Positions 1 through 61,462 of a stretch of 64,000 nucleotides of DNA are shown piece after piece. The position numbers were made by a program, and so were the translations under genes. The notes under the pieces are model-generated. The model had not been told where the DNA came from, made no database searches, and saw only the letters and a list, made by a program, of their open reading frames with translations. Numbering within the stretch: position 1 is the stretch's first letter; the number at the start of each line of letters is the position of its first letter. Origin of the DNA: Psammoneis japonica (taxonomy: Eukaryota); contig QPGO01000100.1 of NCBI GenBank assembly GCA_008632985.1, positions 238,388 to 302,387 on the forward strand. The letters run 5' to 3'.

Positions 1-2350
1 TGGTTGGCATGCCACCACGGCCTCCACACACAGTTGCACCTCCCCTTCCAACAGGCCAGACAACAAAATGAAACCTGATTTCTGTGTTTAAAGTGCTGCT
101 GCACTTCTGCCCTGCAACTCTGGCAACAAGCTGACCCACACCTCCAGCGCATCATTTGCTCTGGCAGGGATGTGCAACAGTTGGTCAAGATTGATGCCAC
201 AAGGCTGTGGCACCCACCAGAAACAGCTGGCAGCAACAAAAACAGGGCCAGCAAATGAGACTTCAAAAGAAGCAAAGCACTTGACACTGCAGTTGGGCCT
301 TTTTCTTGGGATTGGATCTGGCGGCAAAGGCAAAACAGGCAGTCTGGAAAAGTTTTAACATGAGGTGGAGCAGGACATGACAAATTAACCACAACCTCAT
401 GCTGAGCTGGTCTCAAATTCAGACTGGTGGGAGCAGCAATGATGGAGGATTGTTTGCCACATGGAGTCCTCAAGAACTTAAACAGACAATGGGCAGAAGG
501 GGAGTTGTTGATGCCGGAGAGGCATGGACCAAGAGCAGTTGACAGTTCGGCAAGTTGATCATCTGAAATGACCTTTGAGACATGCAGAAAATGTGCTGAA
601 ACTTGTGCAAACTTGTCGGCACACAGAAGCAGACAGGCCAATGCACGCTGAGTTGGACCCAACTTCAAACTCCTGAAAACAGCCACATGAACCAGGGGAC
701 TTCAATTGACAACAGGTGGAAGGGGGGTTGTTGACACTTGAGAGGTGTGGAGAGAGAGCAGTTGACAGTTTTGCAAGTTTTCCATCTAAAATGACTTGCA
801 CGACACGCAGAATTTGCACTGAAACTTGCATGAAAACTTTGCACACAAGAAGAAAAAATGCTGAAAGAACACCACCGAGCAAATGAACCACATCAACAAA
901 GAATTGGCGGTCTGAACAGGCAGGCAGGAACCATCATCACACCATCAGAGAAAGGTGACATCTGTGCCAGAGCTTGTTGCATGGAAAAATGCACAGAGGG
1001 TGCAGCAGCCGCAAAACTGAGGCAGAATTGTCCAACAGGCCAGACAGTCATGGCACTGGTGTGAACCACATGATGACAGCAAATGTCATGCCAGATTTCA
1101 CAGAGCAAGCAAGCAGAGAGAGCAGCCACAGACGCTTTGCCCACATTTCAAGTGCAACTCAAACAATGAAGCTTTCTGCTGCCTCAAAAAACACCCACCT
1201 TGCTTTTTGCTGTTGAAGCAACCAGAGTGCTCCCAGCCAGATGTGATGCACCAAGTTTTGTCTCCTTGTCAAGCTCTTCTCACAGTCCCTTCCATGTTGT
1301 GCCAAGCTGCCATCCACAACAAATGGCTTTTGCACATCAGAGCAGAAAGCTTTTTTCACAAACAATGGGCTCCAGAACAGAGTGTTGCAAATGGCAGACT
1401 TGTGACAAGGTGAAAGCCGCATCACACACTGACAACCACTTGCTCTTCTCTGTTTGTTGGCACCCATCTCTCTTGCTCTTTTTTTTCTCCTCTTTAAACA
1501 CAGCTTCAAGCCAAATCTGGAACAGCATGAAACATCTGCTGGAGCTCAAAAAAGGGTCTGTTGTTTGATTCTGGCATCCAGATTTCTCAGAATGACAAAG
1601 CGACAGGTGAGCTGTTTTGGTCTCATCCTCGAGGCACCTGTCAAAAGCTTTCCTTTGCAAAGACAGGTTCCACCCCCCCCCTTTAAGTGGCTTGTTCTCT
1701 TGCACCATCATGTGCAACCAAAGAGATGGTTTGAAGTTTGCAGCAGTTGCAGCACACTGATTGCAAGTGCACCAGTCATTGCTTCTTTGCAGTGGTCTGG
1801 CACTCCTGTCGAAACAATCATGTTTCTTCTTGAGCTGTTGCTGTGATGCCAGCAAATGATGGGTGGACACTTCTGCACCTGGCATGTGCAAATCAGAAAC
1901 TGACAGAGGTGGTGAAAACAATGCTGGACTTGCCAGACAACAAAGAACTGGATGATGAGTGCCCGCATTGCCAACAACTGACAATCTAAATTGGGTGGCA
2001 CTTCATGTCACAATGCTCCTTTTGAGGTCATGCGGTCAGTTGTTGGCACACCAGAGCATTGCCCACAAAGCTCTTGTCATGAAAAAAAAAAAGAAAATGC
2101 CAGACTTTACTGCACAATGCAAGCTGGGGTGCCGGCAATGTGCTTGTTTCTTGCCACAAGAGGCAAAGAAATTAATTGTGCCTCTGCATCCACATGTGAA
2201 CCCATTTTGTTCAAGGCAGTCTTTTGTGCAAAGACAGACCAACCAAAGATGTCGGGATTGTCTCGATGCAAAGTCGGGATCTTCGCATGACATGTTGAAA
2301 AGAGAACATGCGCAAATGAATGGCTCCTGTTGACACAAGTGAAACTGTAC
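1..2350. other. TpA/CpG-depleted, TpG/CpA-rich degenerate block 1 (probably decayed repeat/TE DNA)
   Basis: Hand count over 1-600: about 4 TA and 5 CG, versus about 10 TA and 13 CG in 300 nt of the neighbouring gene (4381-4680). ORFs are Tyr-free and Cys/His/Trp-rich with no recognisable domain. TE origin is inferred, not shown. Confidence 0.8.
532..870 (+). repeat. Degenerate direct repeat, about 220 bp period
   Basis: agagcagttgacagtt..gcaagtt...catct.aaatgac.......gcagaa..tg..ctgaaacttg occurs at about 532-650 and 755-870. Confidence 0.75.
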
Positions 2351-23451: not shown

Positions 23452-25083
23452 TTAATAACAGCAACCGTCGTCGATAGCTTCTCGCATGTTGCGAGGATGG
23501 AACCAAACATTTAATCCGTACTTTTTTCCACGTGTAACTGTCATTGCTTCATGAAATGCCAAGTCATGTGGTTTCTCAAAGTCGTTGTCCAGCACGTTTT
23601 GCCACAAGACGGCTCGTCCCTTTTTCGGTGAAACGCGTTTTTCAATCTCTGTAAAATGAAGGTCGCCACCTTCTTCGACATCACTCAGAAATACGTAAAG
23701 AGTTAATATTCGATTTCCACATCGTTCTAGTCCTTGTGTCGAAATGAGGTCGTGGTGCTCTTCGTAGTGTCCGCCCTCATTGTACATTAAAATCTCCATG
23801 AATTCCGTGTTTTCAAGCTTCATCTCCGTCGTATTCAGCATTCGATCCATAACTTTCTCACCGACAGACTCGTCTTCACATCCATCCTCACACCAAGCAT
23901 GTAAACTGGTTCGTCCTTGCCCAACATTGTTGCCAAAGGCTCCATCAATGTCGACTTCCTCGGTGATTTCAGCTGTTTGTTCAAAGCCAATCTCGGCTCC
24001 CTTTTGAATCAACCAATCACACTCGTCGCTGGACAAGTAGTCATCAAATACGAGGATCCACGGTAGAGGAGACTCACCAGCTTGTATCGCTTCACCTGTC
24101 GGTCGTGATAACACAGTAGCCTTTGGCGCATGGCTTGATGACACGAGGCGCTCAAACACGGCATGCAATTGCCCGGTTGGCAACATGTCCATGTCCTCGG
24201 GTCGCCGGGCACATTTGCGATAATGCGCAATTGCACTACAAGCTTGACAAGCCGGCGCACAATGTTGAAACATTCGTATCGCATCATTGGTTCCGTGGCA
24301 TTCTCCCATGGCGGCATAGGTGCTGCAATACTCGTCCAAGTTTCGACAATCTCTTCGTACCTCTTGATACTCTTCTTCTTGATACACTTCATTCACCATA
24401 TAATCGCGCGTCTTTTGAATTACTTTTTCAATTTCTTCTCGTATCTTTGCATCCTTATGGTAGGTTTGCTGCTTGACTCCCATGTCAATGGTGACGGCTT
24501 GTGTCGAGTCACCAAAACACACCAGACAGGACCTTGGGCAATTTTGCAACATGTACTCGGAATCCTCCACACACTTCCCTACTTGTGCCTTTTGCTCACA
24601 GTCCTCATCCTTATCTTCACACTTGCCATTTTCTTTGTCTCCTGTATGCAAAAAGTAGGCAAATCCTCGAATCGCATCTTGATAAATCTGCTTGTCTGAC
24701 ATTGTCTCGACCGAAACGCCACCACCATGATGTACACAGGATACCGGACAGTGGGAGAGCATAAATTCAGGGTTTCGTTCACATTCTCCGTTACGAGCCC
24801 AATCTTGACAATGTTCTCGTTTATCCATTCCATATTTCTTGCGATATTTTTGGGTTGAAGAATCATTAATGCGGTTGAGTAGTACCCACAAAAAGGACGC
24901 TAGACAAAAGACAAAACAGAAGAGGTATAGAAAAAGACAGAACGTGTTGTTACTAGCACTGCTCTTGGACGATGAGCGCTGCTTGTTTTTCCTGAAGTGA
25001 TGTGCTGCTGGATAATATGAAGCAGGCTGAGCCGTATGAAGGGGAAGACCATGATTGGAACTACTTCCTCGATGGCGCAACAT
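23452..25083 (-). CDS. P4H: Prolyl 4-hydroxylase with ShKT domains, type II membrane anchor
   Basis: ShKT units (CQDWARNGEC..NPEFMLSHCPVSC); 2OG-Fe(II) motifs HHD, RILTLYVFLSDVEEGG, PKKGRAVLW, HEA..V..G.K; real start MLRHR at 25083. Confidence 0.92.
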   Translation of the reverse strand: MLRHRGSSSNHGLPLHTAQPASYYPAAHHFRKNKQRSSSKSSASNNTFCLFLYLFCFVFCLASFLWVLLNRINDSSTQKYRKKYGMDKREHCQDWARNGECERNPEFMLSHCPVSCVHHGGGVSVETMSDKQIYQDAIRGFAYFLHTGDKENGKCEDKDEDCEQKAQVGKCVEDSEYMLQNCPRSCLVCFGDSTQAVTIDMGVKQQTYHKDAKIREEIEKVIQKTRDYMVNEVYQEEEYQEVRRDCRNLDEYCSTYAAMGECHGTNDAIRMFQHCAPACQACSAIAHYRKCARRPEDMDMLPTGQLHAVFERLVSSSHAPKATVLSRPTGEAIQAGESPLPWILVFDDYLSSDECDWLIQKGAEIGFEQTAEITEEVDIDGAFGNNVGQGRTSLHAWCEDGCEDESVGEKVMDRMLNTTEMKLENTEFMEILMYNEGGHYEEHHDLISTQGLERCGNRILTLYVFLSDVEEGGDLHFTEIEKRVSPKKGRAVLWQNVLDNDFEKPHDLAFHEAMTVTRGKKYGLNVWFHPRNMREAIDDGCCY

Positions 25084-25379
25084 GGTCAAGTTGTGCGTTG
25101 ACGTTGAATGATGGTTGAATGATGGTTGAATGAAATTTTTGAGGACAAATTTTTGAGAAGCAATGCGTTGCGATGGAGCAATGCATGCGCGATCTCTGTC
25201 CGAAGCGAGGGGGGGGAGAGACGTCCGGTTCAATTTTGAATTTTCAAACGGCTGTGGTGACCCAACGGTCAAATGACGGGTCATTTGCCTCGTCGCACTT
25301 TGTACAGCACACGAGGTTGCCATGCTCAAAGACAACTCCATTGGAACACCATGTTGTTGCTGTGCTGAAAAACTCTGAG

Positions 25380-28070
25380 AGAAATCAACAGGACAGAGAG
25401 CTTGGGTGTGCTGGTTGCGAAAACCTGCCCAAGTGCTGGCAACTGTGTGTGACAACATGAGTGCACAGAGAATGAAAGAAAATCTTGATGAGAAAGATCT
25501 GCTCAGCTTTCCAAAAGGTTTGGTTGTCACCACCCATGTGCTGCAGCATGCATGCACAATCCATGGACTCAGCAAACACAGTCGCACAGAGCACACAACC
25601 TTCCTTGACATGTGGTGTCTCTGTGTGGACCCCGCAGGTCACAAAAGGAACAGACAATGCAGCGGCGCACCAGAAACACATGCTGGCCAAAAGTTGATGC
25701 AGCAGCAGACTGGACAGGGACAGCCAGAAGCAACTCAAAGCCAGAGTGCTGCAGCAATGCAGCAGGGGCAGCATGTCCTCAACAAAAAAAGCAAGGAATG
25801 TCCAAAAAAGCACTGGCTGCCTTTCTTTGCTGTTTGTGGTTAACTGCAAATGTCAAGAATCAGCAAAGCTCATGGAACCCATGCAACATGCCCAACTCTT
25901 CAAATGAGAGAGCTGGCCTGTTGTTGTTGCTTCTTGAATCCAACACAGAGAATGACATTGTTGTCACATGGCAAGAAAAACTGTGGTGATGCAGAAAACA
26001 TCAAGGGGTGTGTGTGAGCTGCCAACATGGTGCAAAGTCAGCCCCAGTGCACACCGGCAACAATGAAAAAAGCAAGTGTGCACACCTCTCTTTGCACACA
26101 CTGCTGCTGGTCTGTCAACAGCAGCTGTTGGTCAACAATGTCACACAATGACATGCTGGCAGTGTTGTTGAACTCATGGGGTGCAGGTCAGCAGTGTGTG
26201 AATGCTGGGTTGTGAGTGGGACATTTCCGGGTTTGCCACAGATGGGAGGTTCATCACAGTNNNNNNNNNNNNNNNNNNNNNNNNNNNNNNNNNNNNNNNN
26301 NNNNNNNNNNNNNNNNNNNNNNNNNNNNNNNNNNNNNNNNNNNNNNNNNNNNNNNNNNNNNNNNNNNNNNNNNNNNNNNNNNNNNNNNNNNNNNNNNNNN
26401 NNNNNNNNNNNNNNNNNNNNNNNNNNNNNNNNNNNNNNNNNNNNNNNNNNNNNNNNNNNNNNNNNNNNNNNNCCCCCCCCCCTCCTTTTCTTGCACACAG
26501 CAATGGAGGGTGAGGGCCTTTTGAAGAGCTGGCTCTTCATTGTGAGTGCAAAGATGATGATGGCAGCAGGGAAGGAGAACAATGTCCAGCTGTGCTGTGC
26601 AATCTCAGAGGCAAGGTGTGGCAACTGCACCCAGCCAATGCAGTGCCACAAAGTTGCAGCAAGAGCAAACAGCCTCAGTGCCACAGAAATCTTTTGTGTG
26701 AGTCACAACAATGCTGGGGGTGCAGCCAGCTTCAGCCCTTTCATTTGCCCAGAGAAGGTCTCAATGCTGTGCCACCTGCCTGCGCAGCACTTCTAAACTT
26801 TGCTTTTTGCTTTGATTTTTTTTGGGTCTCCACCAGCAGCTGTGCAGGCTGCCATGAAAGCTGCCCAGTGTCCCCTTTTTGTCATCAGGAAAGAGAACAG
26901 TTCTTTCACTGAGTGCAAAAAATCAGCATCTGAAAAAGAGTGAAGCTTGGTTGTGTCCATGTGAAAGCATTGCCATTGTTTGAGAGCACTTTCTGTTGGA
27001 TTGTTCAAGCTGAAGCCTGCACTTTGTTTTTTGGATCTCACATTTTTGGCAACAACAACACTCGCTTGTTGTGTTGGCTTGAGCTGGGATTTCCTGCAGC
27101 TGTGCCACTTTTGTTGAATTTGCAAGCATGTGTTGCTCAAAAGTGCACTTGTTGAGAAAGCAACAACCCAACCAACATTGATTCAAGCATGTCAGTTGGA
27201 AGCAGTGGTGTGGTGACAAATGTTGAAAAGACCTCTGTTGTAGAATGAGAAATTTTTCTGCCTTGCAGCAAAGCAAAGTCATGGATGTGAAAATAAAAAA
27301 AAGCAAGGGGAAAAACAGGTACCTGACATCATTGGGAGGGCAGGCAGGATGGAAAGGTTTTGAGTGCCAAAGTCATTTGGGTGCAGCCCATTTTCCCACC
27401 ACACCATTGGTTTTTGTTTGACCCAGTTGAGGATTTGATTTTGAGGACTGGTGACTTGAAGAGGAGTTTGTGATGCTCAAAGATTCTGTTGGAGCACCAG
27501 ATTGCTTTGACTGGTCTCTGAGAGAACAAGTTGACAAGACAGAGTGATGGTGTGTGGCTGCTGACAAATGACAGAGACAAGCTGACAAAGACTTCCCAAG
27601 CGCTGGCAACTGTGTGTGACAAATGTGAGTGCAGAGAGAATGAGAAGATCTCACAAAGGAAATCTGCTCAGCTGCCCGAATGGTTTGACCATCATCCATG
27701 GGCAGCATGAACAACAAAGTCTGTGGGCTTTGCAGCTCACAAGATGGAAGCATCTGTGTTGTTGACCCTGCAGGTCACAGCAAAAAGGGGGCAGCACAAC
27801 AGCACATTGTGTGGACACACACATTTAAAGGCAAGGCAACAACAGACTGGACAACAATGTGTCATTGGTGGCAAGTGCTGTCCATTTGTGATGTGCAAGG
27901 GCATGGCAAATGAACAGCAAAAAACAGGTTTTTGGATGACTGCAAGTGCCAATCAGCACAGCTCATGGCAAGTCAAGCAACATGCCCGACTCTTCAAAAG
28001 AGAGTCATTGTCTTGCTGAAATCTGGCACAGAGAAGATCATTGTCACACAAGACAAAAACACACTGTGAA
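25380..28070 (+). repeat. Dispersed degenerate repeat A (copies about 25380-25990 and 27520-28070)
   Basis: Shared cccaag.gctggcaactgtgtgtgacaa...atctgctcagct...gaccc.gcaggtcaca...cagca.agctcatgg...caacatgccc.actcttcaaa.gagag. Confidence 0.8.
26261..26471. other. Assembly gap (N run)
   Basis: Run of n characters. Confidence 1.
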
Positions 28071-30150
28071 GAACAACATGAGGGGCATTTCAACCTCACA
28101 CATGTGAACCACACAATTGTCAAGTGTTTGCCTCATGTGACAACAAATGCGATGCACAAACAAATGATTCCAGGAAGCATGAGAGTGCTGCAAAAAATGA
28201 TCACACACTCTCTTCCCTCAAAACACCCACAAAATTGCATCCAGGTTGAGCCCAGGTTCTGGATGATCAGAACTTTTCCCTGCCAACCATCAGAGTCATT
28301 GCTCTGAATGCTTTTCTTGATGTGAGGTGCTGAGTGCAAAATCAAGCTGTGTTGGTGCCACAGTGGTTGTCACCTGCACAAGTGGATGTGCAGTGCTGTG
28401 CGAAATGCCTGACACACAGCAGAGCAGAGACCGGAAAACACACAAGAGGTGCACACCAAATGTTCATTGAAGGTGATGTGGGGGCAATGACAAATTGTGG
28501 CAAGGTTCCCTTGTGTCAATGCTGTGATGACAACCAACAATCTCAAGCAAGTTCTGCAATGCACAAACAAGTCCAAGCCCAAGCTGCATCAGATGACATG
28601 GCTGGTGCATTTCAAGGCAATGCACATGCCAGATGATCAGGCTGCCAATTCCAGATTGCACACATCCACTGGATGATCAAAACAACTTCTCCTTGTCAAA
28701 CAGGAGAGTTGGCACTCTCTGTGTGGGTGCGCTTTTGGGAATGCAACAAGTTGCTGCTGCTCAGTGCAAGCAAACAGCACTGGGTGCTACAAAATGGTTG
28801 TCTGCAAACCAATGACACAGATCAGCAGAAATGCCCAGCATGCAGCAGGAGGGCAGAGACTGAAAAACACAAATGAGGCACCCATCGTCATGTGCTCATT
28901 GAGGTTGCTGTAGGTTGTGGCACTGTGATGAGATTTTCTTGTGTGCACGCCACAATGATGGTCAACAATCTCAAGCAAGTTTTGCAACAAGCAAGTCCAA
29001 ACTGCATGAAATGCATGGCAGACCTCAGCAGGGGACACATGCACAGGCAGCACCATGCTGCATCAACCAACTGCAAGTGCGCTCTCAAATGAGCAAGTCC
29101 ACTCTGCACAAAAAATGTGGTGCAATTCAGCAGGAAATGCACACAGAGGTTGTGTGGTGCTGCATCAACCAACTGCAAAGAATGCACAAAACAAAAAAAA
29201 CAAAAACAAGAAGCTTGGGCAGTGACCAGCAGGTGCAGCACCAGCAAAAAATGTCTGGCATTTGTGTTTGCAGAAAACAAGTGTTGGTGCACACACCACA
29301 GATGTGGTGCCAGTGTGCACACCAGCAACAAAATGTCGCAAATGGAAGAGCAAATGGGCACAGCCCTCACACATGCTGCTGGTCACAATGGACAGTTGTC
29401 AGCTGACAGCACTGACATGGGGTTGTTGCACCCAGTCAATGATGCGGCAGGTCAGCACAAAAATGTTGGGTGGCTTGCAGAACCTTTTTTGCATCTGCAG
29501 CAGGTGAGAGGCTTGTTGATGATGGACCCCTCCTCTGATGGTGTCACAGGGTTAAAACAAAGCCTCTGAAGGGACACCACAGAGAGGTTGTTGAGGTGGT
29601 GTGGCAGAGTGGACCCAGAGAAAACCACAGTGTGTCTTTGTGAAAATTGTGTTGTGCCCCTGTTTTTGGAGAAAAATGCAACAAGGAGTGCTGCAGCCCA
29701 CCTTGACTGAGGAGTGGGTTTTGCCAAAAGGCACCTGGGCAGGTGAGAGATGTTGAGAGTTGCACATGGTGGCTGTCAGAATCAGAAAAGAGAGCAGTTT
29801 GAGCCAAGTGAAAAAAATGCATCTGAAAAAAAGTGGAGCTTCATGTTCATGTGAAAGCACCGCCATTGGCAGACAGCACTGTCTGTTGGGTCACTCAAGC
29901 TGAATCCCACACTTCATTTTTTGGATCTCACATTTTGGGTGACAACAACTCAGTTGCTGTGTTGACTTGAACTGAGTTTCCAGCAGCAGCTGCGCTGCTT
30001 TTGCAAGCACATGTGGCTCAAAAAAAGTGTGCATGACAACAACACCACCCAATCAACATTGACTCAAGTGTGTCAGTTGGAAGCAGTGGTGGTGGCAAAT
30101 GTTGACGAGACCTTTGTTGTCAATGAGAAATTTCTGACTTGCAGTGAAGT
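26920..30150 (+). repeat. Dispersed degenerate repeat B (copies about 26920-27265 and 29810-30145)
   Basis: Shared catgtgaaagca..gccattg...ttttttggatctcacatttt...caacattga.tcaag..tgtcagttggaagcagtggtg...aatgagaaattt. Confidence 0.85.
28460..29060 (+). repeat. Degenerate repeat C (copies about 28460-28635 and 28895-29050)
   Basis: Shared caacaatctcaagcaagtt.tgcaa....caagtccaa and flanking sequence. Confidence 0.7.
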
Positions 30151-31630
30151 GCTGAAGTGGCCATGAAAATGAGACACCACCCACCCATGCCATTGCTGCT
30201 CTGCTTTGTAATGTGAAGCTTCTTTGCACTTGTTTGCAGGCTTCTTGGTTGTGTTGCACTCTGCCTGCAAGAAATTTCTGCACTGCAACAAAGCAGAGTG
30301 GTGATTTCAAAACCGAGACACCACCAATGCCTTTGTTCCACTTGCCAAGGACATGGGGGCTGTCACTCTTGTCTGTGGGCTGCTTGGTTGCCACACACAT
30401 GCTTTGCCTCATGGCTGGAGAGTGAAAAGTTGCTCTTTTGTCCCTGCACCAAAGCTGACATGGACAACTTCAAGTGCAGACAAAAACATCAATTGTGTGG
30501 TCTCAGCTCCTGCTGTTTGGCCCAGCAACACTGGCTCTGTGTGTCATGGACCTCCGCTCCCCATCACATCAAAGATGTGACAGGAACAACCAATGCAGCA
30601 ATGTTTTGAGTCAAGGTGGGATTTGGCTGGGTGCTTCTTGTTGCACAGCACCAAATGTTTTTGCCATGACTGAATGATGAACAAGCCAGTGGGGGTCTCG
30701 CAGCTGTCAACAAAAATCACAGCAGAAAAAATGTGCCTGTCTTCAAATGTCAGCTTCAGAAAATCCAACCTGAAGGGTGCAAGGGCTTTGAAGAGCCATT
30801 TCTGGATTGGAGAGCTGCCTTGGAGGAGAATGCATCTTGTCTGGAAAAAAGGCCTGGGAAGTTGCCAACAAATGTTGGGAGAAGGAAAGTGCTGGGAAGT
30901 CTTGACAAGAGTCTCAGAGAAGCACCAAAAATGGAAAGATTGGCCCCGTTCAATGCTTGGAATGCAGTCACACATGTGGAAAACAACAGCTGCAGAGGTG
31001 CTCATTTTGTCTTGAGAACTCAAACAAAAAAGACAAAAAATGTGAGAATGTCTTGGATGCAGCATGTCTTGGATGCAGAATTGTGCAGAGGAGGTGTGCA
31101 GCCATTGGGGGTGAGAACACAAGAAGAGAAATCACCATGGCAGTGATGCTGCACCCAAATGAATTTGGAATGGAGTGTCACCTCTAACACCTGCACAACA
31201 TCTCCATCATGGCACAACTGCCAAGCACTCCAAAGTGACTGAGGAAGCTGCCTGGCACAATGCCCAACTCTTGCACAGGACAGCCATGTGGCTGCTTGCA
31301 CAAAAAAACAGCTGCAAAGTGCAGACATCACATGTTGTGAGAACCATCCACCCCGTTGTCACCAAGGCTTTTGTGCAGCCAGCATTTGGCAAATCAACAG
31401 TGAAGAGTGTCATGTCAAAAGCTCTGCAGCTGGGCAATCTGAAGCGGAGAGCAAGAGAAAGAGTGAGACCAGCCATGACACCAGACAAAAAATGCAAAAG
31501 TTTCAAGAACCCAATCATCATGTTGAGCAATGAAAGCCACCTCCTCATTGATGCCCATGCTGGCAACCATCATTCTTGCCTCCTTGCCATGATGGCCATT
31601 GCTGAATGTTTTAGAACAAGAGCAAGTTCA

Positions 31631-32586
31631 CAGCAGCAGCAGCAGCAGCAGCAGCAGCATCCACTGTCCGAAATCCACCATCCAGAATCTGCCATCCAGA
31701 ATCCGCCATCCACCATCCACCATCCGCCATCCAGCATCCACCATCCCGCATCCACCACCCACCATCCACCATCCATCATCCACCATCCACCATCCACCAT
31801 CCACCATCCACCATCTGCTGTCCACTGTCCACCATCCAGCATCCTCCATCCACCATCCATCATCCAATGTCCAGCATCCAGCATCCAGCATCCGCCATCC
31901 AGCATGCACCATCCAGCATCCACCATTTGCCATCCAGCATGCACCATCCACCATCCGCCATCTGCCATCCACCATTTGCCATCCAGCACCCAGCATCCAC
32001 CATCCTCCATCCAGCATCCACCATCCGCCATCCAGCATCCACCATCCACCATCCACCATCCATCATCCACCATCCGCCATCCATCATCCATCATCCATCA
32101 TCCACCATCCACCATCCAGCATCCACCATCCAGCATCCAGCACCCACCATCCGCCATCCGCCATCCAGCATCCAGCATCCACCATCCACCATCCACCATC
32201 CAGCATCCATCATTCACCATCCACCATCCACCATCCAGCATCCACCATCCAGCATCCAGCATCCATCATCCACCATCCGCCATCCAGCATCCACCATCCG
32301 CCATCCACCATCCTGCACCCACCATCCACCATCCCGCATCCACCATCCCACATCCACCATCCACCATCCAGCATCCACCATCCAGCATCCACCATCCGCC
32401 ATCCGCCATCCAGCATCCACCATCCAGCATCCACCATCCACCATCCGCCATCCACCATCCACCATCTGCCATGCACCATCAAACATCCACCATCCACTGT
32501 CCACCATCCAGCATCCACCACCCACCATCTGCTGTCCACTGTCCACCATCCAGCATCCAGCATCCACCACCCGCCATCCACCATCC
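31631..32586 (+). repeat. (CAG)9 followed by a roughly 0.9 kb 7-bp satellite (TCCACCA/TCCAGCA/TCCGCCA)n
   Basis: Directly visible heptamer tandem array; gives HHPPSSI-type translations. Confidence 0.95.
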
Positions 32587-33577
32587 AAAAAAAAAACGAA
32601 ATCTGTTTTACCACTGCCTCGCTGCTGCCCACACCAACACCTGCCATGGCAGATGCACATTCCCCAGCACCCACAAAGGGCAGCAGGGACAATTTGAACA
32701 CTGTGAACGTTGTCAGAAAGACAGTGCCATTAACACGTTGTCCGAAGGCAATGCCGTTAGTGCATCATCAGAAAGTGGCTGTTTGTTTTAAGTCAGAATG
32801 GCACCAACTGGATGCTTGTTGCACGGCAGCACAGTTGCTGTGCCTCAAAGAATGGACAAGCCCAGCCACACCACTTGGGAGACACCAAAACAAACACGGC
32901 AGAAAACTGAAACACATGTCTGTCTCCAAAGACAATTTGCTTGAAGAGAATGTGAATGAAATTCCTGGCATGAAACCATCCAGGAAGTCGCTCCAACACG
33001 GACCCCAACGATGAAAGGAAATGATGATCGCGGAAAACACCATCACACGTAGAATTGCACAGGAATTGTGCACTGAAGCTGCAGCATCGAAGTGCAAAAA
33101 GAGCAAACACTCAGACCTGGAAATGCTGGCCACTTGAAAGACTTATGAAGACCCACTTTGAAGTGCTGCCGTGCAGTGTTGATCATGACATTGAATTGCA
33201 CTGTAAAGAAAACTTGGAGGAAGAACGTTGGCAAGAAAACCAAAGGATGAAACTTGAAACGGTCTCGACTCAAAATTCTGGCCAAACGTGCAGAATTGCA
33301 CATGGAATTTGCACTGTAACAACTGACTTGGAAATTGCTGAATCACGTAGAAACCAATGCATAAAACACACTGACACATGGAAAGAAAATGCAAAGAGAT
33401 GCGACACCATGGCGGTGCCGCCCCCCCGAATGTAGACACAACAGAGTGTCCCCTCCGATGCCTTTTGGTTTCTCTGTCATTGGTGCAACTGCCTGACGTC
33501 CCAAAGTGCCCGAAGAGGTTGGCATGCCACCGCACTCTCACACGGGACAATCCTGCAGGTGCTTGAGCAGAATTGTG

Positions 33578-33932
33578 CCATCCACCATCCAGCATCCAGC
33601 ACCCACCATCCACTGTCCACCATCTGACTGCCATCCACCATCCAGCATCTGCCATCCAGCATCCACCATTCAGCATCCGCCATCTGCCATCAACCATCTG
33701 CCATCCACCATCCACCATCAACCATCCAGCATCTGGCACCCAGCATCCACTGTCCAGCATCTGCCCTCCAGCGCGCAGCATCCATCATCCAGCATCCACC
33801 ATCCAGCATCCCCAGCACTCACCACCCACCATCCTCCAACCACCTTCCATTGCCCACCACTCAACATCCAGCATCCAGCACCCAGCATCTGCCATCTGGC
33901 ATCTGCCATTCACCATCCAGCATCCACCATCC
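33578..33932 (+). repeat. Second, more degenerate array of the same 7-bp satellite
   Basis: catccac/catccag/catctgc units. Confidence 0.92.
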
Positions 33933-36824
33933 ATTGGGGCCATTTTTTCCAATGCTGTCAGCCCATCACTGCCTTCTCTCACCACAGACTGTGCCACCAT
34001 GCAGGGTGTGCTCAACAACAAAATTAACACATTGACCTCAACAACAAGTTGACAGAGTTGCCTTGTCAGCAGTGCCAGCATGAGAGTTCACAACAGCACA
34101 GGTTGTGTGAGGCATGCACCCAATGACTCCGTGAAAAAGAGGGTGACAAGAGTTGTGCTGCAGCATGATGGCAGAAAAAGTTCCGGGTCATTTGGGAGGA
34201 TGTCGTTTCTAATGTGAATGCCGGCTTTTCAAGATGTTGAAAGAATTTTTGTTTGGGGTTGCAGTTTGGAATTTGAGTGAAAAAGATCATTGGATGTGTG
34301 AAATGACACGACAAATGCACAAATGTTTGCAACAATTGTGCTGCGATTGTGCATTTGACGCTGGATGCAGTTGTTGATGATGGCACTTGTTGGTGTTTGG
34401 GCTCAGTTCATGCTGCAGTTTGTGGGTGATGTCAAGTCTTAGATCTCATTGACCAACTTGCAATGTTGACTGCTCATCTCAATTGTCACAGAACAGAAGA
34501 ACAACTGTCTCTCAGAAAAAGACAGAAAGAAAGGAAGAACATGAGTGCAATTGAGAGTTGCAGGATGCACCCACCCCCCTTGTTCCCATTCAATCCTGCT
34601 GCATCATTTTGTGTCTCCATCAAATGTTTTGGTGAAAATTGCACTGCATGCCTTCTGACCCTGTGGTGTGGCAAGGAGACAATGGGTTTGCATTCTGGAC
34701 TCTGACTCAGATTCACACATCAATGATCTCTTCCCACATGGACAGTTGCTTTCAGTTAAGATGTGCATGATGGACTGCAAAACTTGCTGTCAAAGACTGC
34801 TGGCTTGTGAAAAATTCTGACAATTCCAAGAGACCAAGAGACAGCTCCCCTGAACTAACTCATCATGTTGTTTCCTGGACAACGCCATGCTGCAGAAGAA
34901 ACAAAAGGGAAACAACTCAATTTGGACACGCAAAAATGTGAAAAAAATGAACCTCAAGTCCCAACAAGTTGGTGGCACCATTTTGTGCTTCATGGTGCAA
35001 AGCAACCCTTGTGAGATTGCACTTGTGAAGATTTGAAGAATGTTGAAAAAAGAGCGAACTTGGTTTGCACCATGAGCATGTGAATGACATTGATGCAGAT
35101 CCCAGCTGATGATTTCAAGCTGACTTGACACATTGTTTCAAAACCAAGAGCTTGGCTGGACACTTTGAAGGAAACGGGCATGTCATTTGGGACTTGCACA
35201 TTGTTGAAAAAGGGTGTTTTAATGCTGCTGGATTGTTGTCACACATTGGGTCCCAACAAGGAAAGAATCCCACAGTGTGTGCAGCCTGGTGTTGGAGAAT
35301 GCAAATGCAACAGGAGCATGCAATGTCTGTGACTTTGCTGGAACCATCAAAGGCAAGAGAGTCAACATCTTCAACATTGTTGTCTTGAACCCAGTTGTGC
35401 AGGCACCATGCACAGCACCAGAGGGCTTGCTGTAAAACCACCATCTCATGCTGTCAAGCAAGCTGTCAGTGGTGCCATCATCCAAGCACTGGCTCATGTT
35501 GGTGGCCTTGTTGGAGAACACACAAAAGGAGGACATTCAGAGAAATGCAGTGCAGAATGCATTGGTGTCAAAGCAATTGAACCATGGGGACACTGCGGCA
35601 GATTGCTGGGAACCTTTGTGCTTGGTGGAACAATTGGCAACAGTTTTGTGGGAGGTGGTGTCACTGAATGTGGAGATTGAGTCAGTGGCCTTGTTGGACT
35701 CTTGTCTGCTGACAGCCTTGTTTCAAGCAGCTGTGCATGCGGCGGCATCAAAGTGAATGGTGACAATCACAAAAAAGCAACCCTCCAGTTGGCGGTGGTC
35801 TTGTTGGGTGGAACACAGGTTCAATCCAGAACAGCTTTGCACTGGAAAAATTTCCAGTGGGTCCAGGGCATGTCTTGGGATGCTCATGGGTTAGATCTGA
35901 CAAAAGGTCTTGTCTCACAACAACTGCTGCAGGACAGAGCCTCCAATTGGCACCAAGGTGCAGGCAAAAGTCATTGACGATCCAAGCTGCTTTTGAATTC
36001 AGGGCAATGAGCCAATGTTGAGCTGGAACATTGACACTTGGACTTTTGGAGTGAGCTTTTGCCCATCGCTCAAGTGTCGGAACACACATGGCCACCAGCA
36101 ATGAGCCCAAGCATTGTTTCCACTGGACGGTCAACAATGACAAGTGTGCCGTTGACAGGGCCACTGTCGTTCATCATTGTCTTGTTTGCCATGGCCTTCC
36201 CAAGTTGCCGACCAAGGCAACCGCATGCATCACTGCCAATTCCAATGACAGCATGTGAAGACTGCACTGCTGTCATTGTTGCGGGAACTTTGAAGAAGAT
36301 CACACAGCATCTGGGTTGCATCAAGCTTGAACTGCACAAAATTATCCAAATTGAAAAATCTAGAAAAACATTGTTCGAAAGGTCACGCGGGCGAAAAAGC
36401 TCTTGACGAAGCAACGGCACTTCACTCCCGCAAAGTCCCTGGCGCATACAATCTGTTGCAAGGTCTAAGAAATCAAGTCGGCGAAAAGGTTCGCTGAGGA
36501 CAAATGACTCTAGAAGACCAAAAGAGAATTGTGGCTGTCATCAATGAGGCACAGCATCTCATTGATCTATTGAATGCATTCTAGGGTTAACGCGAAAGAG
36601 CCTTTACGTTCTTCGATGCACCATTCACGGTGGCTTGTTTCCAGTAGAAAAAGAAAGGCGCTGAAAAATGTCAAGAAATGATGCTTTTCAAAAGTAGGGC
36701 CGTAGCTAGTACAAACTAAAAATGAGCGCTCTACTAGAAGTGTAATTCATTGTTAAATTTATCACATATCCATTAAAACTTCAAAACGCTAAAACTACTG
36801 TTGTACAGACAGATTCAAGTCAGT

Positions 36825-49844: not shown

Positions 49845-50921
49845 GGATTTCTTTTTTGAATTGTGTGATTTGTATTCGTATTTTAGACAAAATGGTTGGT
49901 TATACATCCTTTGGTTTTGATTGTTTTGTCGTTGTTCAAGTTTGCGGCAAGTGGTTATTATTACTTTATTTTTGTACTGCAAGCTCGCATGTCTTGTTCC
50001 TACAATAGCGGCTGTTATCGATTCTCATTTCCAAGAGAAGTGGAAAAGTCCAAATCATTCTTGCGTGTGTTGAAATAGAGCAGAACTAGTCTCTATAGAG
50101 AGAATCAGAGATAATAGAGAATCTCTATAGTTAGTTAGTAGCTTGATCTCGAGAGAGTAGTTAGTTCGTTCGTCGGTTGACTCGTCATTTCACGATTTCA
50201 ACACGATGTTGCCACATTGATGTAGTGGCGTCAATCTAAATCCATATACACCACGAGATTTGGCCAAGGCAGCTATACATTGTGAACTCTAGGTTGGCGT
50301 TGATTTTTAAACTCGGTTTTGCTTTGATATCATCTCTAGCTCAATGTTTTAGAGTTTTTCCCTATAGTTTTGTACAACTTGGACGAGACCTGCATGAAAT
50401 GGGGCGTCGTGTGTCATGATGGGACCCATCATCTTGATCTATCTAGAGTGTACTGTACCACGAAGCGAAAGAAGCGCGGCGGTTACGATGGGCAATTAAA
50501 AAAATGTCAATAATTGAAGTAAATAAACACGTGGAATGTGGTCTCTGACCTTATTGCGTGGCTGAAGAAAACACGAGCTAAATCGCTGTCACTTCCAAAT
50601 CTCCCTCCGACCTCATCACAACATCAGCTGAAAACAAACACCAAAACCCGCCGTCGTTCTACAGTCCCGGTTCATTTCAGGAGAATCATACCCCATATCC
50701 AGCCCAACATTGAATGTTGTAAAAGGTGACAACACCATCTTCCCCTCTCTCGGGCGGCACGATCGATGCGGGGGAGTTGTGTTTTTGGTGCGTTTCACGC
50801 AGAAATCTACGTGTCTGGTGCTTGACGTTGATGCTTCCTCTCGATGGATGCCTCAGTTTCTGCTCTCGATTCTCTCACAATCTTTTCTTTGACCAGGAAG
50901 TAACACAGTCAAGACATCGCC

Positions 50922-52370
50922 ATGATTGCCTTCATGAAGAACCTTGTTGTCATCTCCCTTGGCATTGCTGCCGGTGCCGCGAGTGCTGGTCCCTTTGCCC
51001 GCCCGCTTTCGGCCGTCTTTGACTCGACGGTGCAAGGTGTGTTGATTGCTGTGAAAGCAAGTCAAGACATGCTTCACATTGCTTTGGCCATGACCACAAT
51101 TTTTGCGCCGATCGAAAGCCATGATGACTCCTTCATCCGCCTCCCAAAACATCCTCCGCAACACCACACCTGCGAGCATGCCCGTTGAAGCTCAAATCAG
51201 GTCGAGCATCTATTGTGTGTCTTTTGACCACAAGGACTGCGACTCCACCCTTCTTCACAACATCATTCGAAACTGCACACCTGTGGACGACGTGCCAGTT
51301 GAAGCTCTAAAAGCCTCGAGCTCTGTCTGCCAGTCTTCCTTCGACTTGTCCTTGGAGCACGAAATCGATTTGTCTGGCCGTTTCCAAGAAATCTTTCAAG
51401 AGCACGTGCCCACCGCAATGATGCCCATCCTGACATTTTCCGACACTTGCAAGATTTTGTCAAACTGTGCCATTGAGACCACGTTGAAGTTGCACACGAC
51501 ACTCCATGAATTCTCTTTGAAGACCACCAAGACTGTTCGTGAAACCGCTTCGAGCTTGCACAAGATCATCCATGACTCCTTGAAGACCTTTGTCACAAAG
51601 ATGCAAATTCAGGCTTGCATTTGGAAAGAACACATGATGACGCAGCTTCAGACACCAAGATTGTCATTGGAATGTTGGTGGACGACAATTTTCAAGAATC
51701 AACAAATGGCTTTGTCACGCTTGTTCAAACTCAGGCTTGTGCTCTGCATGAAAAATACGAGACGATGCTGTTTCAGACACCAAAATTGTTCTGCATCCAG
51801 AACATTGGTGGACAAGAGTTCAAAACTTGTGGAAGAGCTTTTAGTCTGGGTGCGAGTGTGGGCGAGCGAGATGTCAAGAGTTGGGGACATTCCTTGTGTC
51901 CCGATCCGAATCATGCGGTGAATTGGGTTGGTTGTCAGACACAGGGTTTGGAGTTCCAAGTCGCCAGTTGTCAGATGATGCAGCAGGTGTCCTGTGCAGA
52001 CACAAATGAAAATTTATCCATCTCTGTCATAATTCACATGCTGGGTTGGTGTCCATTGCTCCATCAAAAAGGTTGTGCCGCAAACCGTGTCTCCCAAGAA
52101 CGACTTCCGCGCGCGACTGCCTGATGATGATCCAAGCTGCCTTTGCCAGTGCAGCTTCAGACAGACCCACAGCACTTGCGTGGCACAGAACCTGTCGGCA
52201 TCACACTCGCACAAGAGGAAACCGCAGAGAGGGAAGGCTCTGGCGCATGCCAAGATGACTTTGATTGTTGCAAAGAACACGAACAACATGCACCGTGCCA
52301 GTCGGCAAGACTCACAAGTGTTTTCGGCTTGCCCAGACGCATGTAACGCACAGTTTGAGACCTTCTAATG
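50922..52370 (+). pseudogene. Degenerate gene of unknown family with a signal-peptide-like start
   Basis: MIAFMKNLVVISLGIAAGAASA followed by overlapping broken frames that are nearly Tyr-free. Confidence 0.4.
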
Positions 52371-52499
52371 TCGCAGACGCATGCTGTGAATGTGAACTCT
52401 GTTGATGCAGTGGATTGAGCTGTGGTCATCGTGCCAAATTTGGTCACCATGAATTTCTTGCGGGGACTGCGACAGGCGTTTTCAACGGGGGTTCAGCAA

Positions 52500-53100
52500 T
52501 TGAGAAGCTGTGTCGTGTGTGTCAGCCTCAAGCGCTTGCACTCTTTGGATCCAAAAATGTTGCAGCAGCTCACAGACTTTAAGCCTGAGAGCATCATGCC
52601 CAAATCTCTGGCCAGCTGATCAACTGGAGGATCAGATTTGAGGCCCTCAGTGTCAGCCTGCTGGGACACAACTGGCTCTTTGCACTGATGAATCTTGGTC
52701 CTTGCCGAAGAGAGATTGCTGTTGCTTGAGAGTTGATCTGCTGAATCGATTTCATGCGCACAGTGAATGCGAAGCCATTGAGCCACAACGTGAGGTCTGG
52801 CTGAGACACTTCTTTGCCCGTGGGCCTTGCGATGGAGCAGCTGATGCAATTGCCGAGAGCAGGTCGCTTTGCAAGAGTGTCGGTTTGGCAAAGGCCATTG
52901 CAGACATGTGGAATCGGATTTGGTCCAATGCAACCCCATGGAGTGGCAAGAGTTACGTCAAGGAGAACATCACGACTCTCCTCGGCATAAAAGTCACCCA
53001 CCGTGACTGCAAATGAGCCATCATCCCTCTTGACGGCACTTTCATGATGGACTTTGGTGATTTTGTCACCAAGATTTGCCACCTCTTGGTTTTGGTCACG
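52500..53100 (-). pseudogene. C-terminal fragment of a VWA-domain protein
   Basis: VTVGDFYAEESRDVLLDVTL resembles the GDLYAEE.RD.L motif that follows VWA domains; frameshifted; VWA core not seen. Confidence 0.6.
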
Positions 53101-53599
53101 TGACGGGCCTGTAGAAAACCCAACGAGTTTGATGACTTTCTTGTCACGTGCTTTGGAGCACTCTCAAGTCGCTTCTTCTTGCTGATTGACAGAGAAGGGA
53201 TGACCACGTGTGTTCGACTGTCGCGACTGAGCAGGAAAGTGTGAACATGGCGAGGTCACGTGCATTCTGCAGCAAAAGTGAACTTGATGAGTTGGCAATG
53301 GGAACCTCTTCATTGTTGCTTCACTTCTTGGTGCGCCAACTGTCAAGTGTGCATGAAATGTCGTGTGCTCGCACTCAAAAGAACGCGACCATGACGTCAA
53401 GCTCATTGCTCTTACAAAACTGCTTTCCACCCGGCCTCGGTCTAAAATCAATGTGCCATCAGTGCCCACATGGACATCATTCCAGAAAAGCACGGGGTGT
53501 CAGTCTGGCTGGGCAAAAGAGTCCAAAGGACATCACAAACCCACTGTCCATCAAGTTTTTGTCTGGCTTCGGAGTCCAGTGGCTAGACTCTTGTTCCAG

Positions 53600-54350
53600 T
53601 TCTAAAGCTTTCAATTCATGCAACGGCGGCACATTCTCCATCACTCCCGGGTTCCAGTTTCTCCCAGATCACCCCCATCATTGGCTTTTTAGGTGGTGGC
53701 TCAATTTGCATCTGCTGAGTTGGCGTTGCAATGTAGTCAGAGAGGGTGTCGCAAGGGCTTGGACAAAGTTCCTGATCGGAAACAACCTGGCAGTCATGAA
53801 CCAAAGATGCAACTGGCATGCCCAAGTCGATGACTCCAATCTGGTGGAGCACAGCCCATTCCAGGTCAAAGCATCCATGTCCCTTGCCAAAACGCAGCCC
53901 ATCTCGGTTGACGACTGAGGCTCCTGCAACTGCCAAATCTAATTTGCTGTGCCTCTGACGAATGTCCGACAACGAAACGCATTGCCGACATCTTTGCAGT
54001 TGTCCAGCAAAACAGTTGCACTGGCGGTGCCGGCAGTCTCTCCATCTGATGGCCTGATTTTCAAAATTACCTTCTGCATCCCACCTGTTGGCATGACAAC
54101 CACCTTGCCGTCTTGTCCTTCTGCGCATCCCAGCAGCTTCTCGAGACAGTTGTCAGGTGTGATGAAGATGGTTTTTGCTTCTGAACATGCTTTCATTTGT
54201 CACAATCTTTTCGTTGCAAGTTCGCTGCCTTCAAAGTCTGGAATGAAATGGTTGAAGTCACAGCCATGACACTTGTGAGGTTTCGCCACTCGCTCCATTC
54301 TCGTCACACCCACTTGGCGTTGCAGCCTTGCGCCAAGTTGCCACGTCATT
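53600..54350 (-). pseudogene. 5-formyltetrahydrofolate cyclo-ligase-family pseudogene
   Basis: DFNHFIPDFEGS, AKTIFITPDNCLE, DGK.VVMPT, G.RFGKGHG(C)FDLEW and VHDCQVV; in-frame TGA at 54200-54202 plus frameshifts. Confidence 0.85.
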
Positions 54351-54937
54351 TTGTCCCACTGACAGCAGCTTGCAGTGGACGGGAGGTGCAGGCGCGAGGG
54401 ACAGCTGGTTGTTCTTCACTGGCATTTGTCATGGATTCTCTGCTTTTGCCCATTGTGGAGGCACCCATGGATGTTCTGTTCCGCAGAAATGTGAAAGGCA
54501 GAATCTCTGGCCTGGGGTGGCAGTCGCGTGGATTCCTTCTCCATTGACCGTCATCAAAAGCAACACCACAGAAACATTCCTGCCAAGGCAGTTGCACATT
54601 TAGGAAATGAAACGTTCTTCCCAACACCGGCAGAAGTGAAGGATTCTTTTCGAACCTCGACGGTCAATGGCGGGTCCAATCACAAAACACAAAACATCTC
54701 GCAGTGGAGTCTCTGCTCTCTGCTCGCTGCAACAAAGAGTGAGTCCATTTTCATCAGGAGCTGGATGAAGCCCATGGTACAAACTTAGAGACAACGGGTC
54801 TAACGGCACCAGCGCCATTGTCGAGAATCAATCATTAGATTTTGATGATGCTCTCTGCAGATGTTGCAGAACGTAGGTTCCACGTAGAAGTAATGCTATA
54901 AATCTCTCCCCAGCGTTTGAATTAACAATTTCTTACC

Positions 54938-61181: not shown

Positions 61182-61462
61182 ATAGCCCGAAGCCCAAAAG
61201 GGATGCATTTGCAGCGGGGAACGAAGCGTTCACGGGGTTAAGATCTAAAAGTAGGGGGACTTTATGACACACACACTAAGATATTTTATGTCTAACAAGA
61301 GCGACTGCTCCTCCCGATTCATGCTGTTGAAAACGTTCGGGTTGTCCTGAAAAAAATCTTGGATGGCTCCTGCATGAGGATTTTGGTAGTAACCCCTCAC
61401 GCTTCTAGTCGAGCCACCTTTGTTCAGAAACTACTCAGTCGCCTCAAGGAACCCAGATCTCC

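Follow-up and report, generated by a model that had tools for sequence, protein, structure and literature searches.

Introduction

The closest described counterpart of the DNA analysed here comes from the chlorarachniophyte Bigelowiella natans. Our own material is a 64,000-nucleotide stretch from the diatom Psammoneis japonica (NCBI GenBank assembly GCA_008632985.1, contig QPGO01000100.1, positions 238,388 to 302,387 of the forward strand), hereafter the window, with positions counted from its first letter; its subject of interest is three blocks nearly free of the dinucleotide TpA and rich in TpG and CpA. In mutation-accumulation lines of B. natans, the mutation rate of two integrated viral regions exceeds that of the remaining genome about 1000-fold, and 230 of the 231 mutations in these hypermutable regions are A→G or T→C, all on TpA (Mettrop et al., bioRxiv 10.64898/2026.01.13.699255). 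As far as the accessible text of that preprint goes, the B. natans genome contains 124 clusters that are depleted of TpA and enriched in CpA and TpG, a homologue of ADAT2 is proposed as the deaminase, and a 5' U or T beside the edited A is described as typical of ADAR and of tRNA A34 editing; diatoms and CpG each receive no mention in it (bioRxiv 10.64898/2026.01.13.699255). Based on the counts given there (211 mutations, 6169 TpA, 3132 generations), we calculated that a TpA of B. natans mutates at a rate of about 1e-5 each generation; the corresponding half-life is about 6e4 generations, at which saturation would be reached within millennia. Among diatoms, about 6% of the Phaeodactylum tricornutum genome is methylated (PMC6604790, citing Huff & Zilberman 2014 and Veluchamy 2014), and mutation accumulation in this species revealed a GC→AT bias, with no TpA hypermutation seen in the accessible part of the article (PMC6604790).

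An initial annotation of the window, made from its letters alone, had described the blocks as the product of an undescribed mutational system. The term is outdated, since TpA→TpG/CpA hypermutation has been measured in B. natans (bioRxiv 10.64898/2026.01.13.699255, accessible text); our literature searches found no report of TpA hypermutation in diatoms. We found that the blocks are probably ordinary DNA rewritten in place by a region-confined, strand-symmetric TpA→TpG/CpA process of the same kind as in B. natans, to which a slower and independent decay of CpG was added. Dinucleotides are written TA, CG, TG and CA below where no ambiguity arises.

Three domains of the window are nearly free of TpA

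Three sharply bounded TA-poor blocks had been placed at about 1-2350, 25200-36350 and 50560-54780 by the initial annotation. The positions of single TA and CG confirmed all three as real, near 1-~2347, 25063-36342 and 50580-54777 respectively. The annotation had also named the observed/expected (o/e) ratio of TA as a check, and within the window the ratio was not equal inside and outside the blocks, being 0.04-0.11 across the blocks versus 0.58 for the rest. Per 1000 dinucleotides, TA occurred 4.4 times in block 1, 2.9 times in block 2 and 6.7 times in block 3, compared to 39.5 times in the flanks (the remaining 45 kb). The depletion claimed earlier therefore stood, but its size of about 5-fold had been understated, as TA was 6- to 14-fold scarcer in the blocks than in the flanks by whole-block counts.

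Block 1 contained 10 TA and 20 CG in 2249 dinucleotides (o/e TA 0.07, CG 0.16, TG 1.87, CA 1.71), and block 2 contained 32 TA in 10987 dinucleotides, or 11.07 kb of called bases (o/e TA 0.04, CG 0.18, TG 2.05, CA 1.79). With 27 TA and 166 CG in 4050 dinucleotides (o/e TA 0.11, CG 0.65, TG 1.55, CA 1.55), block 3 had apparently been converted more recently or less completely. When 1-kb windows were slid along the sequence, TA o/e was 0.01-0.17 in the blocks and 0.35-0.95 elsewhere, CG o/e spanned 0.04-0.5 in the first two blocks and 0.5-0.87 in the third, and the o/e of TG and CA was 1.4-2.7 in the blocks. The edges were sharp, with the transition completed within about 100-250 bp. At the right end of block 1 the density of TA was restored at 2348-2427 and that of CG at about 2253, and around block 2 dense TA stopped at 25062 and restarted at 36343. 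The 12 longest TA-free gaps of the window (459-997 bp) all fell inside the blocks.

When the thresholds of the B. natans study were applied to non-overlapping 1-kb windows, 16 of 64 passed; all were located in the blocks, where they formed one run of 2 (truncated at position 1), one of 11 and one of 3. Of the 44 windows without block overlap, none passed (TA rho 0.35-0.95, CA+TG rho 1.02-1.36). As a yardstick we used 57 environmental contigs (241 kb) carrying a kinase gene related to the kinase neighbouring the blocks, in which TA rho fell below 0.3 in 0 of 762 1-kb windows and the 1st percentile was 0.42. TA-poor windows were thus not found in these 57 kinase-bearing metagenome loci, which were mostly short genic contigs and uninformative on the gene-poor DNA of other diatoms.

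Contigs from a public DNA run, which may stem from the same strain as the window, spanned 35001-38480 over the right edge of block 2 with 0 differing letters and 52729-54756 in block 3 with 4. Since the block as well as its junction with the flank was reproduced by these contigs, the block sequence was not an assembly artefact. The part of block 2 covered by the DNA run had ordinary depth.

The blocks were altered by transitions on both strands

Transitions leave the purine or pyrimidine class of a base intact, and the purine/pyrimidine pattern can therefore be used as a transition-blind reference. The fraction of pyrimidine-purine steps was 0.236, 0.252 and 0.241 in blocks 1 to 3 and 0.243 in the flanks. 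Within this constant total, TA+CG dropped from 0.097 in the flanks to 0.013, 0.014 and 0.048 in the blocks, and TG+CA rose from 0.146 to 0.223, 0.238 and 0.194. With the 7-nt arrays of block 2 left aside, the loss of TA+CG amounted to 1154.8 dinucleotides and the gain of TG+CA to 1170.9, relative to the flank-scaled expectation, and the remaining 12 dinucleotides stayed close to their flank values. Because the gain of TG+CA equalled the loss of TA+CG with the pyrimidine-purine total unchanged, the blocks were altered by transitions. G+C was 0.48-0.51 in block 3 versus 0.43-0.47 in adjacent windows, as expected if A:T→G:C outpaced the decay of CpG; in block 2, where both TA and CG were lost, G+C was unchanged relative to the surroundings.

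The two products were balanced: the left part of block 2 contained 715 TG and 687 CA, and block 3 contained 407 TG and 404 CA. Moreover, they were finely interleaved (runs-test z -0.2 to -4.0 in the blocks versus -2.6 to -3.6 in the flanks). Balanced and interleaved TG and CA argue against a single round of editing on one RNA or DNA strand.

Duplicated sequences diverged in place

Self-comparison of the window revealed diverged duplicates within blocks 1 and 2 (Table 1), and the pairs retained 66-81% identity in four letters. In the purine/pyrimidine alphabet, in-block repeats were 0.91-0.96 alike compared to 0.67-0.80 in four letters, and the duplicate pairs of block 2 were 0.94-0.96 alike where compared. 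Similarly, the 7-nt units of the tandem arrays in block 2 had a four-letter identity of 80%, compared to 0.92 when read as purines and pyrimidines, and they differed mostly by transitions.

Adjacent double-transition differences were counted in four duplicate pairs of block 2 and one of block 1, and compared to those in three pairs outside the blocks. In the five in-block pairs, CA↔TG accounted for 26 of the 36 double transitions (26 of 955 aligned dinucleotides), with AC↔GT seen 4 times, AT↔GC once and TA↔CG not at all. The three outside pairs had 12 CA↔TG among 46 double transitions (12 of 2316 aligned dinucleotides). CA↔TG swaps were thus 5 times commoner in in-block duplicates (Fisher p 5.6e-7 per position and 4.7e-5 per double transition). 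A mismatch of CA with TG, a double difference that is rare otherwise, results when an ancestral TA or CG is mutated on different strands in the two copies, which is expected half the time. The excess of such mismatches therefore indicates that mutation took place in situ, after duplication, and excludes a sequence that arrived already free of TA. Tandem duplicates outside the blocks, used as controls, included 39586-41042 / 41629-43032 (65% identity), a pair of genes without a Pfam family, and 61444-62099 / 63227-63900 (78%).

Loss of TpA and loss of CpG are two separate processes

We compared where, how far and in which sequence context the two dinucleotides had disappeared. In block 2, the TA-poor domain was wider than the CG-poor core, with an overhang of about 250 bp at either end. 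On the left margin, 21 CG were counted in 25033-25312 (dense up to 25312) though TA was absent from 25063, and on the right margin CG was back from about 36067 and TA only from 36343. The end of block 1 had a TA-poor overhang of about 100-170 bp past its CG-poor part. The left edge of block 2 overlapped the 5' end of a ShK/prolyl-4-hydroxylase gene (candidate starts at 25083 or 24828, minus strand), and the hypermutation domain appears to reach the 5' region of this gene without CG loss (25063-25312). In block 3, 83% of TA was lost and 17% left, whereas only 29% of CG was lost, leaving 71% of the flank-level CG per kb.

Survival of each dinucleotide was then related to its neighbours (R, purine; Y, pyrimidine), normalised by each block's own pyrimidine-purine steps per purine/pyrimidine flank class, a count that stays fixed under transitions. 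The surviving fraction of TA was 0.026 in RTAY (5 TA), rose to 0.065 where the context was mixed (21 TA) and reached 0.324 in YTAR (31 TA), a 12-fold range; CG survival in the same contexts was 0.30, 0.30 and 0.31, without any dependence on the flanks. The values of -ln TA survival (3.64, 2.73 and 1.13 for RTAY, mixed and YTAR) were close to additive per strand, as expected if the strands were attacked independently and 5'-TAY-3' was an about three times better substrate than 5'-TAR-3'. In the unsaturated block 3, the corresponding values were 2.76, 1.82 and 1.04, and the order of survival, RTAY below mixed below YTAR, was common to all four block segments analysed. TTAA, which is a poor substrate on both strands, made up 16 of 69 surviving TA compared to 71 of 1773 flank TA (p 3.9e-8). 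Because the footprint, the extent in block 3 and the context dependence all differed between TA loss and CG loss, these are two separate processes.

Content of the blocks and neighbouring genes

The three blocks were mutually dissimilar, even in the purine/pyrimidine alphabet. The TA-poor state is therefore a property of the region and not of one repeat family or element. LTR-like (long terminal repeat) or TIR-like (terminal inverted repeat) ends were not found in the self-comparison of the window, the purine/pyrimidine alphabet included. Of the 93 stop-to-stop open reading frames (ORFs) of at least 90 aa in the blocks, 82 were scanned against Pfam; the 11 omitted lie in the 7-nt arrays, where all three plus-strand frames are open and give spurious ORFs of up to 542 aa. 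A further 113 ORFs of 50-89 aa from 1-2400, 25100-31560, 33900-36400 and 50500-52600 were included. A transposon or virus domain was found in 0 of these 195 block ORFs. The scan yielded a cyclo-ligase match, a marginal ankyrin repeat and otherwise sub-threshold noise only. The ankyrin-repeat remnant (1834-1986, plus strand, E 1.2e-4, just over the Pfam cut-off) was the sole protein-like remnant detected in block 1. The initial annotation had regarded the affected DNA as silenced or repetitive. This was not supported for block 2, given the outcome of the Pfam scan and the ordinary depth of the part covered; abundant relatives in the DNA run were confined to the left half of block 3.

Table 1. 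Positions of the blocks and of features within them, in window coordinates
Feature	Position	Strand	Location or evidence
Block 1, TA-/CG-poor, TG/CA-rich domain	1..2347	.	truncated by window start
Internal duplicate, diverged, block 1	456-638 / 682-861		self-comparison
Block 2, 11.3-kb domain almost without TA	25063..36342	.	dinucleotide counts
CG-poor core of block 2	25313..36060	.	about 250 bp inside the TA-poor domain on each side
G8 run	25208-25215		block 2
Direct duplication, diverged, block 2	25420-25545 / 27587-27707	+	self-comparison
Direct duplication, diverged, block 2	25832-25910 / 27928-28004	+	self-comparison
Assembly gap, 212 N, then C10 run	26261..26472	.	inside block 2
Direct duplications, diverged, block 2 (range 26823..30170)	26823-27294 / 29715-30170	+	self-comparison
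Direct duplication, diverged, block 2	28402-28602 / 28828-29019	+	self-comparison
Tandem array (ATCCACC)n / CCATCCA, ~131 copies	31673..32587	+	block 2
Second array of 7-nt unit, ~50 copies	33578-33933		block 2
Block 3, TA-poor, CG partly lost	50580..54777	.	dinucleotide counts
Left part of block 3, many relatives in DNA run	50342..52342	.	contig depth
vWA-family gene fragment, C-terminal part only	52597..53163	-	96 relatives at E<=1e-3, best 4.4e-23
5-formyltetrahydrofolate cyclo-ligase-family pseudogene, prokaryotic type	53619..54325	-	Pfam PF01812, E 1.1e-5

Block 3 appears to be pieced together from a stretch rich in relatives, a vWA-family gene fragment and a cyclo-ligase pseudogene. Over its left part, contigs of 90% likeness or more added up to a depth of 282-634 versus 54-65 in the flanks, a depth that is not a copy number. 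In run X1, 224 contigs aligned to a 20-kb stretch, 111 of them 90-95% alike. No relative was found for a 275-aa ORF at 51094-51918 in the multi-copy part. The vWA fragment matched residues ~285-430 of proteins of ~500-570 aa, and 5 of 6 related proteins scanned had VWA domains (N-terminal), one with a Vwaint domain. The fragment directly adjoins the cyclo-ligase pseudogene. The latter carried one frameshift and one in-frame TGA; by tblastn it gave two high-scoring segment pairs, in frames -1 and -3, with 53% and 42% identity to P0001, the stop lying in the first. Relatives of P0001 comprised 53 prokaryotic loci, those of Chloroflexota being 55-66% identical to it and others belonging to Rhizobiales and some archaea, and 0 relatives were in viral contigs. 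The pseudogene may be the remnant of a bacterial gene transferred into the diatom and now inactivated. With regard to a foreign origin, block 3 thus contained a prokaryote-type pseudogene and the multi-relative stretch, but also a vWA-family fragment, and had no virus match.

The blocks adjoin expressed-looking genes. The neighbouring genes were intron-poor and encoded the ShK/prolyl-hydroxylase, a DUF285 protein, an EF-hand protein, a pyruvate-dehydrogenase-kinase-like protein, a TAZ/bromodomain protein and a G-alpha subunit. Relatives of the kinase were 57% identical in Phaeodactylum, 54% in Seminavis and 52% in Fragilaria, with others at 61-63%, which places the window in a diatom distant from these three genera and not in Bigelowiella. 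Run X2, recorded as 'DNA?', is evidently a transcriptome. Its spliced contigs (regions 36762-38332, 41517-42031 and 47924-49902) defined introns at 37527-37613 (87 nt), 41799-41923 (125 nt) and 49246-49363 (118 nt), which begin and end GT..AG on the strand of the gene. Depth of X2 over the neighbouring genes was 200-547 and peaked at the EF-hand gene, which lies some 420 bp outside block 2 on its right. Over the parts of blocks 2 and 3 that were compared, X2 had no depth, a lack of cover that does not count as evidence. The DUF285 (BspA-like repeat) gene contained 75-nt coding repeats at 17240-17884, followed by 42-nt repeats at 18241-18388 encoding a Ser/Ala/Pro-rich stretch. The left margin of block 2 (25063-25312) contains an 11-nt tandem repeat (GTTGAATGATG, x2.8) as well as the G8 run.

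Proposed mechanism and alternative explanations

As our best guess at the enzyme, we infer a DNA adenine deaminase that prefers TA(Y). Within a marked chromatin domain, a deaminase of TadA/ADAT type would act on DNA that is transiently single-stranded and would prefer the A of 5'-T-A-Y-3'; the natural TadA substrate reads U-A-C, which is compatible with TAY. The resulting inosine (hypoxanthine base) would be read as G, and replication would fix A→G. Hits on either strand would give TG on one and CA on the other, and some 1e5 generations of repeated hits could remove nearly all TA. CpG methylation of a slightly narrower core would add the slower decay of CG, most simply by deamination of 5-methylcytosine (5mC). 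On this model, blocks 1 and 2 would be close to saturated, and block 3 would have gone about 83% of the way. Targeting to chromatin, and any function in defence, would be further properties of such a system.

Several observations weigh against rewriting in place or restrict it. Loss and gain per flanking context, at the tetranucleotide level, correlated poorly (r 0.13), so the balance is global only and the ancestral composition of the blocks was therefore not simply flank-like. A CA↔TG pair cannot separate an ancestral TA from an ancestral CG, and the polarity at single sites is inferred and not observed. The context counts were small (57-69 TA), and the faster conversion of RTAY than of YTAR is best taken as a prediction. 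There was no sign of ongoing activity: the single-copy part of block 3 differed from the DNA run at 4 of 2029 letters, a rate no higher than in the flanks (18 of 7108 and 9 of 2849), and of the differences listed at 54014 and 54213 (single-copy part) and at 50757, 50980 and 51485 (multi-copy left part), 0 were on TA. Compared to three relatives, the cyclo-ligase pseudogene had Cys (TGY) or His (CAY) at 5 of 8 Tyr positions and Cys or Gln at 4 of 8 all-Arg positions, and this lean gives weak support to mutation in place. In a profile of 53 homologues, however, Cys was found in 2 of 5 columns with at least 30% Tyr, one invariant Tyr was Gly (GGT), and just 2 of 9 Arg-rich columns had Cys or Gln; the three Tyr-rich columns of the vWA fragment read Phe, Tyr (TAT kept) and Gln.

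A single process of dual specificity, for example a deaminase acting on both A and C without separate decay of 5mC, might have stripped TA as well as CG. Both end as TG/CA in the same blocks, and ADAT2 enzymes acting on A and C in DNA are cited in the accessible text of the B. natans preprint, yet the hypermutable regions of B. natans itself, at 230 of 231 mutations A:T→G:C, are essentially without C→T (bioRxiv 10.64898/2026.01.13.699255). A single process is unlikely in view of the wider reach of TA loss (about 250 bp more at either edge of block 2), the survival of 17% of TA versus 71% of CG in block 3, and the 12-fold context range for TA compared to none for CG. If instead thymine were attacked, a TET/JBP-type dioxygenase would oxidise the T of R-T-A to 5-hydroxymethyluracil or 5-formyluracil, which would mispair with G and lead to T→C. 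The duplex outcome, CA on one strand and TG on the other, would fit equally well, as would the context rule, RTA being the complement of TAY. 5-Formyluracil is able to pair with G, and TpA contexts are occupied by the 5-hydroxymethyluracil of dinoflagellate DNA and by base J at the telomeres of kinetoplastids. The base J site follows a pyrimidine (TTA), whereas a purine was favoured in the blocks, and we hold the thymine route to be improbable.

Arrival of the blocks as foreign or mobile DNA (a virus, a transposon or a bacterial insert) that was TA- and CG-poor beforehand, with no mutation in place, would agree with the prokaryote-type pseudogene and the stretch with many DNA-run relatives in block 3, and with the lack of recognisable host genes in blocks 1 and 2. 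It is very unlikely nevertheless, as the CA↔TG double differences between in-block duplicates indicate mutation after duplication, and the constant pyrimidine-purine fraction with its exact exchange of TA+CG for TG+CA is not expected of an unrelated native composition. TA depletion also ran unbroken across the unrelated repeat, vWA fragment and prokaryote-type pseudogene of block 3, the three blocks were unrelated to each other, and none of the 241 kb of environmental contigs approached a TA o/e of 0.04. Editing at the RNA level, in which transcripts of a retroelement would undergo ADAR/ADAT-like A-to-I conversion followed by reverse transcription and insertion, would explain the sharp block edges and the 5'-T preference shared with known RNA adenosine deaminases (bioRxiv 10.64898/2026.01.13.699255, accessible text). 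One edited RNA strand would yield TG or CA only, whereas the two were equally enriched and finely interleaved; no reverse transcriptase or integrase remnant was among the 195 ORFs, nor were terminal repeats present, duplicates diverged by CA↔TG after duplication in place, and the loss of TA extends into the 5' region of a neighbouring gene. This makes RNA editing even less likely than an origin from foreign DNA. The initial annotation had also considered that a polymerase-eta-like enzyme, recruited to these regions for error-prone repair, changed WA to WG. In somatic hypermutation, A→G errors of polymerase eta occur at WA, with TA a hot motif. In the blocks, AA was not depleted (o/e 1.18, 1.13 and 1.22 in blocks 1 to 3 versus 1.14 in the flanks) and AG was not enriched (1.09, 1.01 and 0.98 versus 0.94). 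The near-total removal of TA with AA unaffected misfits a WA motif, and this candidate is hardly tenable. The least probable of all is an artefact of sequencing or assembly. Block 2 does contain an assembly gap flanked by homopolymers, but independently assembled contigs of ordinary depth matched the blocks and the junction with 0-4 differing letters, and we know of no chemistry that converts TA and CG to TG/CA in kilobase patches beside normal sequence.

Significance

To our knowledge, before 2026 no cellular process was known to destroy TpA specifically in chromosomal DNA. The same footprint, far more complete, in a diatom suggests that the process is probably not peculiar to a single species. 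Relative to the literature that we found, the saturation, the independence from CpG loss with a consistent offset at the edges, and the strand-additive flank rule are new. With 16 of the 64 kb affected here, the process can rewrite one quarter of such a stretch, thereby shaping genome composition and gene death. Old repeats and insertions would be hidden from homology-based annotation, which may explain why blocks 1 and 2 hold nothing identifiable. The context rule, with RTAY converted fastest and YTAR, especially TTAA, slowest, is the specificity that any candidate enzyme must reproduce, and the offset between TA and CG loss offers a testable link to chromatin boundaries. Such studies are now possible in a group with established transformation and gene-editing tools.

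It is conceivable, though rather doubtful, that diatoms and chlorarachniophytes share a TpA-erasing DNA-editing pathway that is chromatin-marked and independent of CpG methylation, extends about one to two nucleosomes beyond it, and acts on 5'-TAY-3' of either strand to saturation. If this were true and the pathway homologous in both lineages, a mutator serving genome defence or acting on heterochromatin would be widespread in the SAR (Stramenopila, Alveolata, Rhizaria) supergroup. Its enzyme would be a natural DNA adenine editor working in a double-strand context, leaving permanent TG/CA-rich 'scar' blocks, and a natural A:T-to-G:C editor in chromatin would be of interest to base-editing technology.

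Comparison with known systems

Deamination of 5mC accounts for the CG→TG/CA part of the signature (CG o/e 0.16, 0.18 and 0.65), but it cannot remove TpA, which fell from 39.5 to 2.9-6.7 per 1000, and so does not explain the whole. The loss of CG was moreover narrower, slower and flank-independent relative to that of TA. The initial annotation had argued that a process distinct from 5mC deamination removes TpA by A:T→G:C, and this was borne out by the mass balance, the CA↔TG duplicates and the differing footprint and context of TA and CG loss. Like fungal repeat-induced point mutation (RIP), the process is regional, dinucleotide-specific and confined to transitions, has sharp edges and degrades coding capacity. 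However, RIP turns CpA/TpG into TpA and makes DNA AT-rich, whereas here TpA o/e was 0.04-0.11, CpA/TpG o/e was 1.55-2.05 and G+C in the blocks was unchanged or slightly raised. RIP, which the annotation had dismissed because TpA is destroyed and not created, does not fit. Deaminase hypermutation with a nearest-neighbour preference is also seen with ADAR/ADAT and APOBEC enzymes; these act on RNA or, for APOBEC, on single-stranded viral cDNA with a strand bias, whereas the blocks are chromosomal DNA and strand-symmetric.

The comparison with B. natans, made on the accessible text of the preprint (bioRxiv 10.64898/2026.01.13.699255), revealed differences as well as likenesses. B. natans is a chlorarachniophyte of the Rhizaria, and P. 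japonica is a diatom of the Stramenopila. In B. natans, mutations were measured directly and the targets were viral, whereas here the process was read from its footprint in the sequence. The active nucleocytoplasmic large DNA virus (NCLDV) region of B. natans has a TpA rho of 0.45, whereas the blocks are near saturation with TA rho of 0.04-0.11. A loss of CpG coincides here, CpG being absent from that text, and the RTAY > YTAR rule and the ~250-bp overhang were found here and not in it. On the other hand, target and products are the same in both organisms, TpA being converted to TpG/CpA. Action is regional beside normal DNA in each, with clusters of 1-kb windows that are depleted of TpA and have an excess of CpA+TpG, and few genes can be annotated in the affected regions, one block here carrying a gene remnant of non-eukaryote type.

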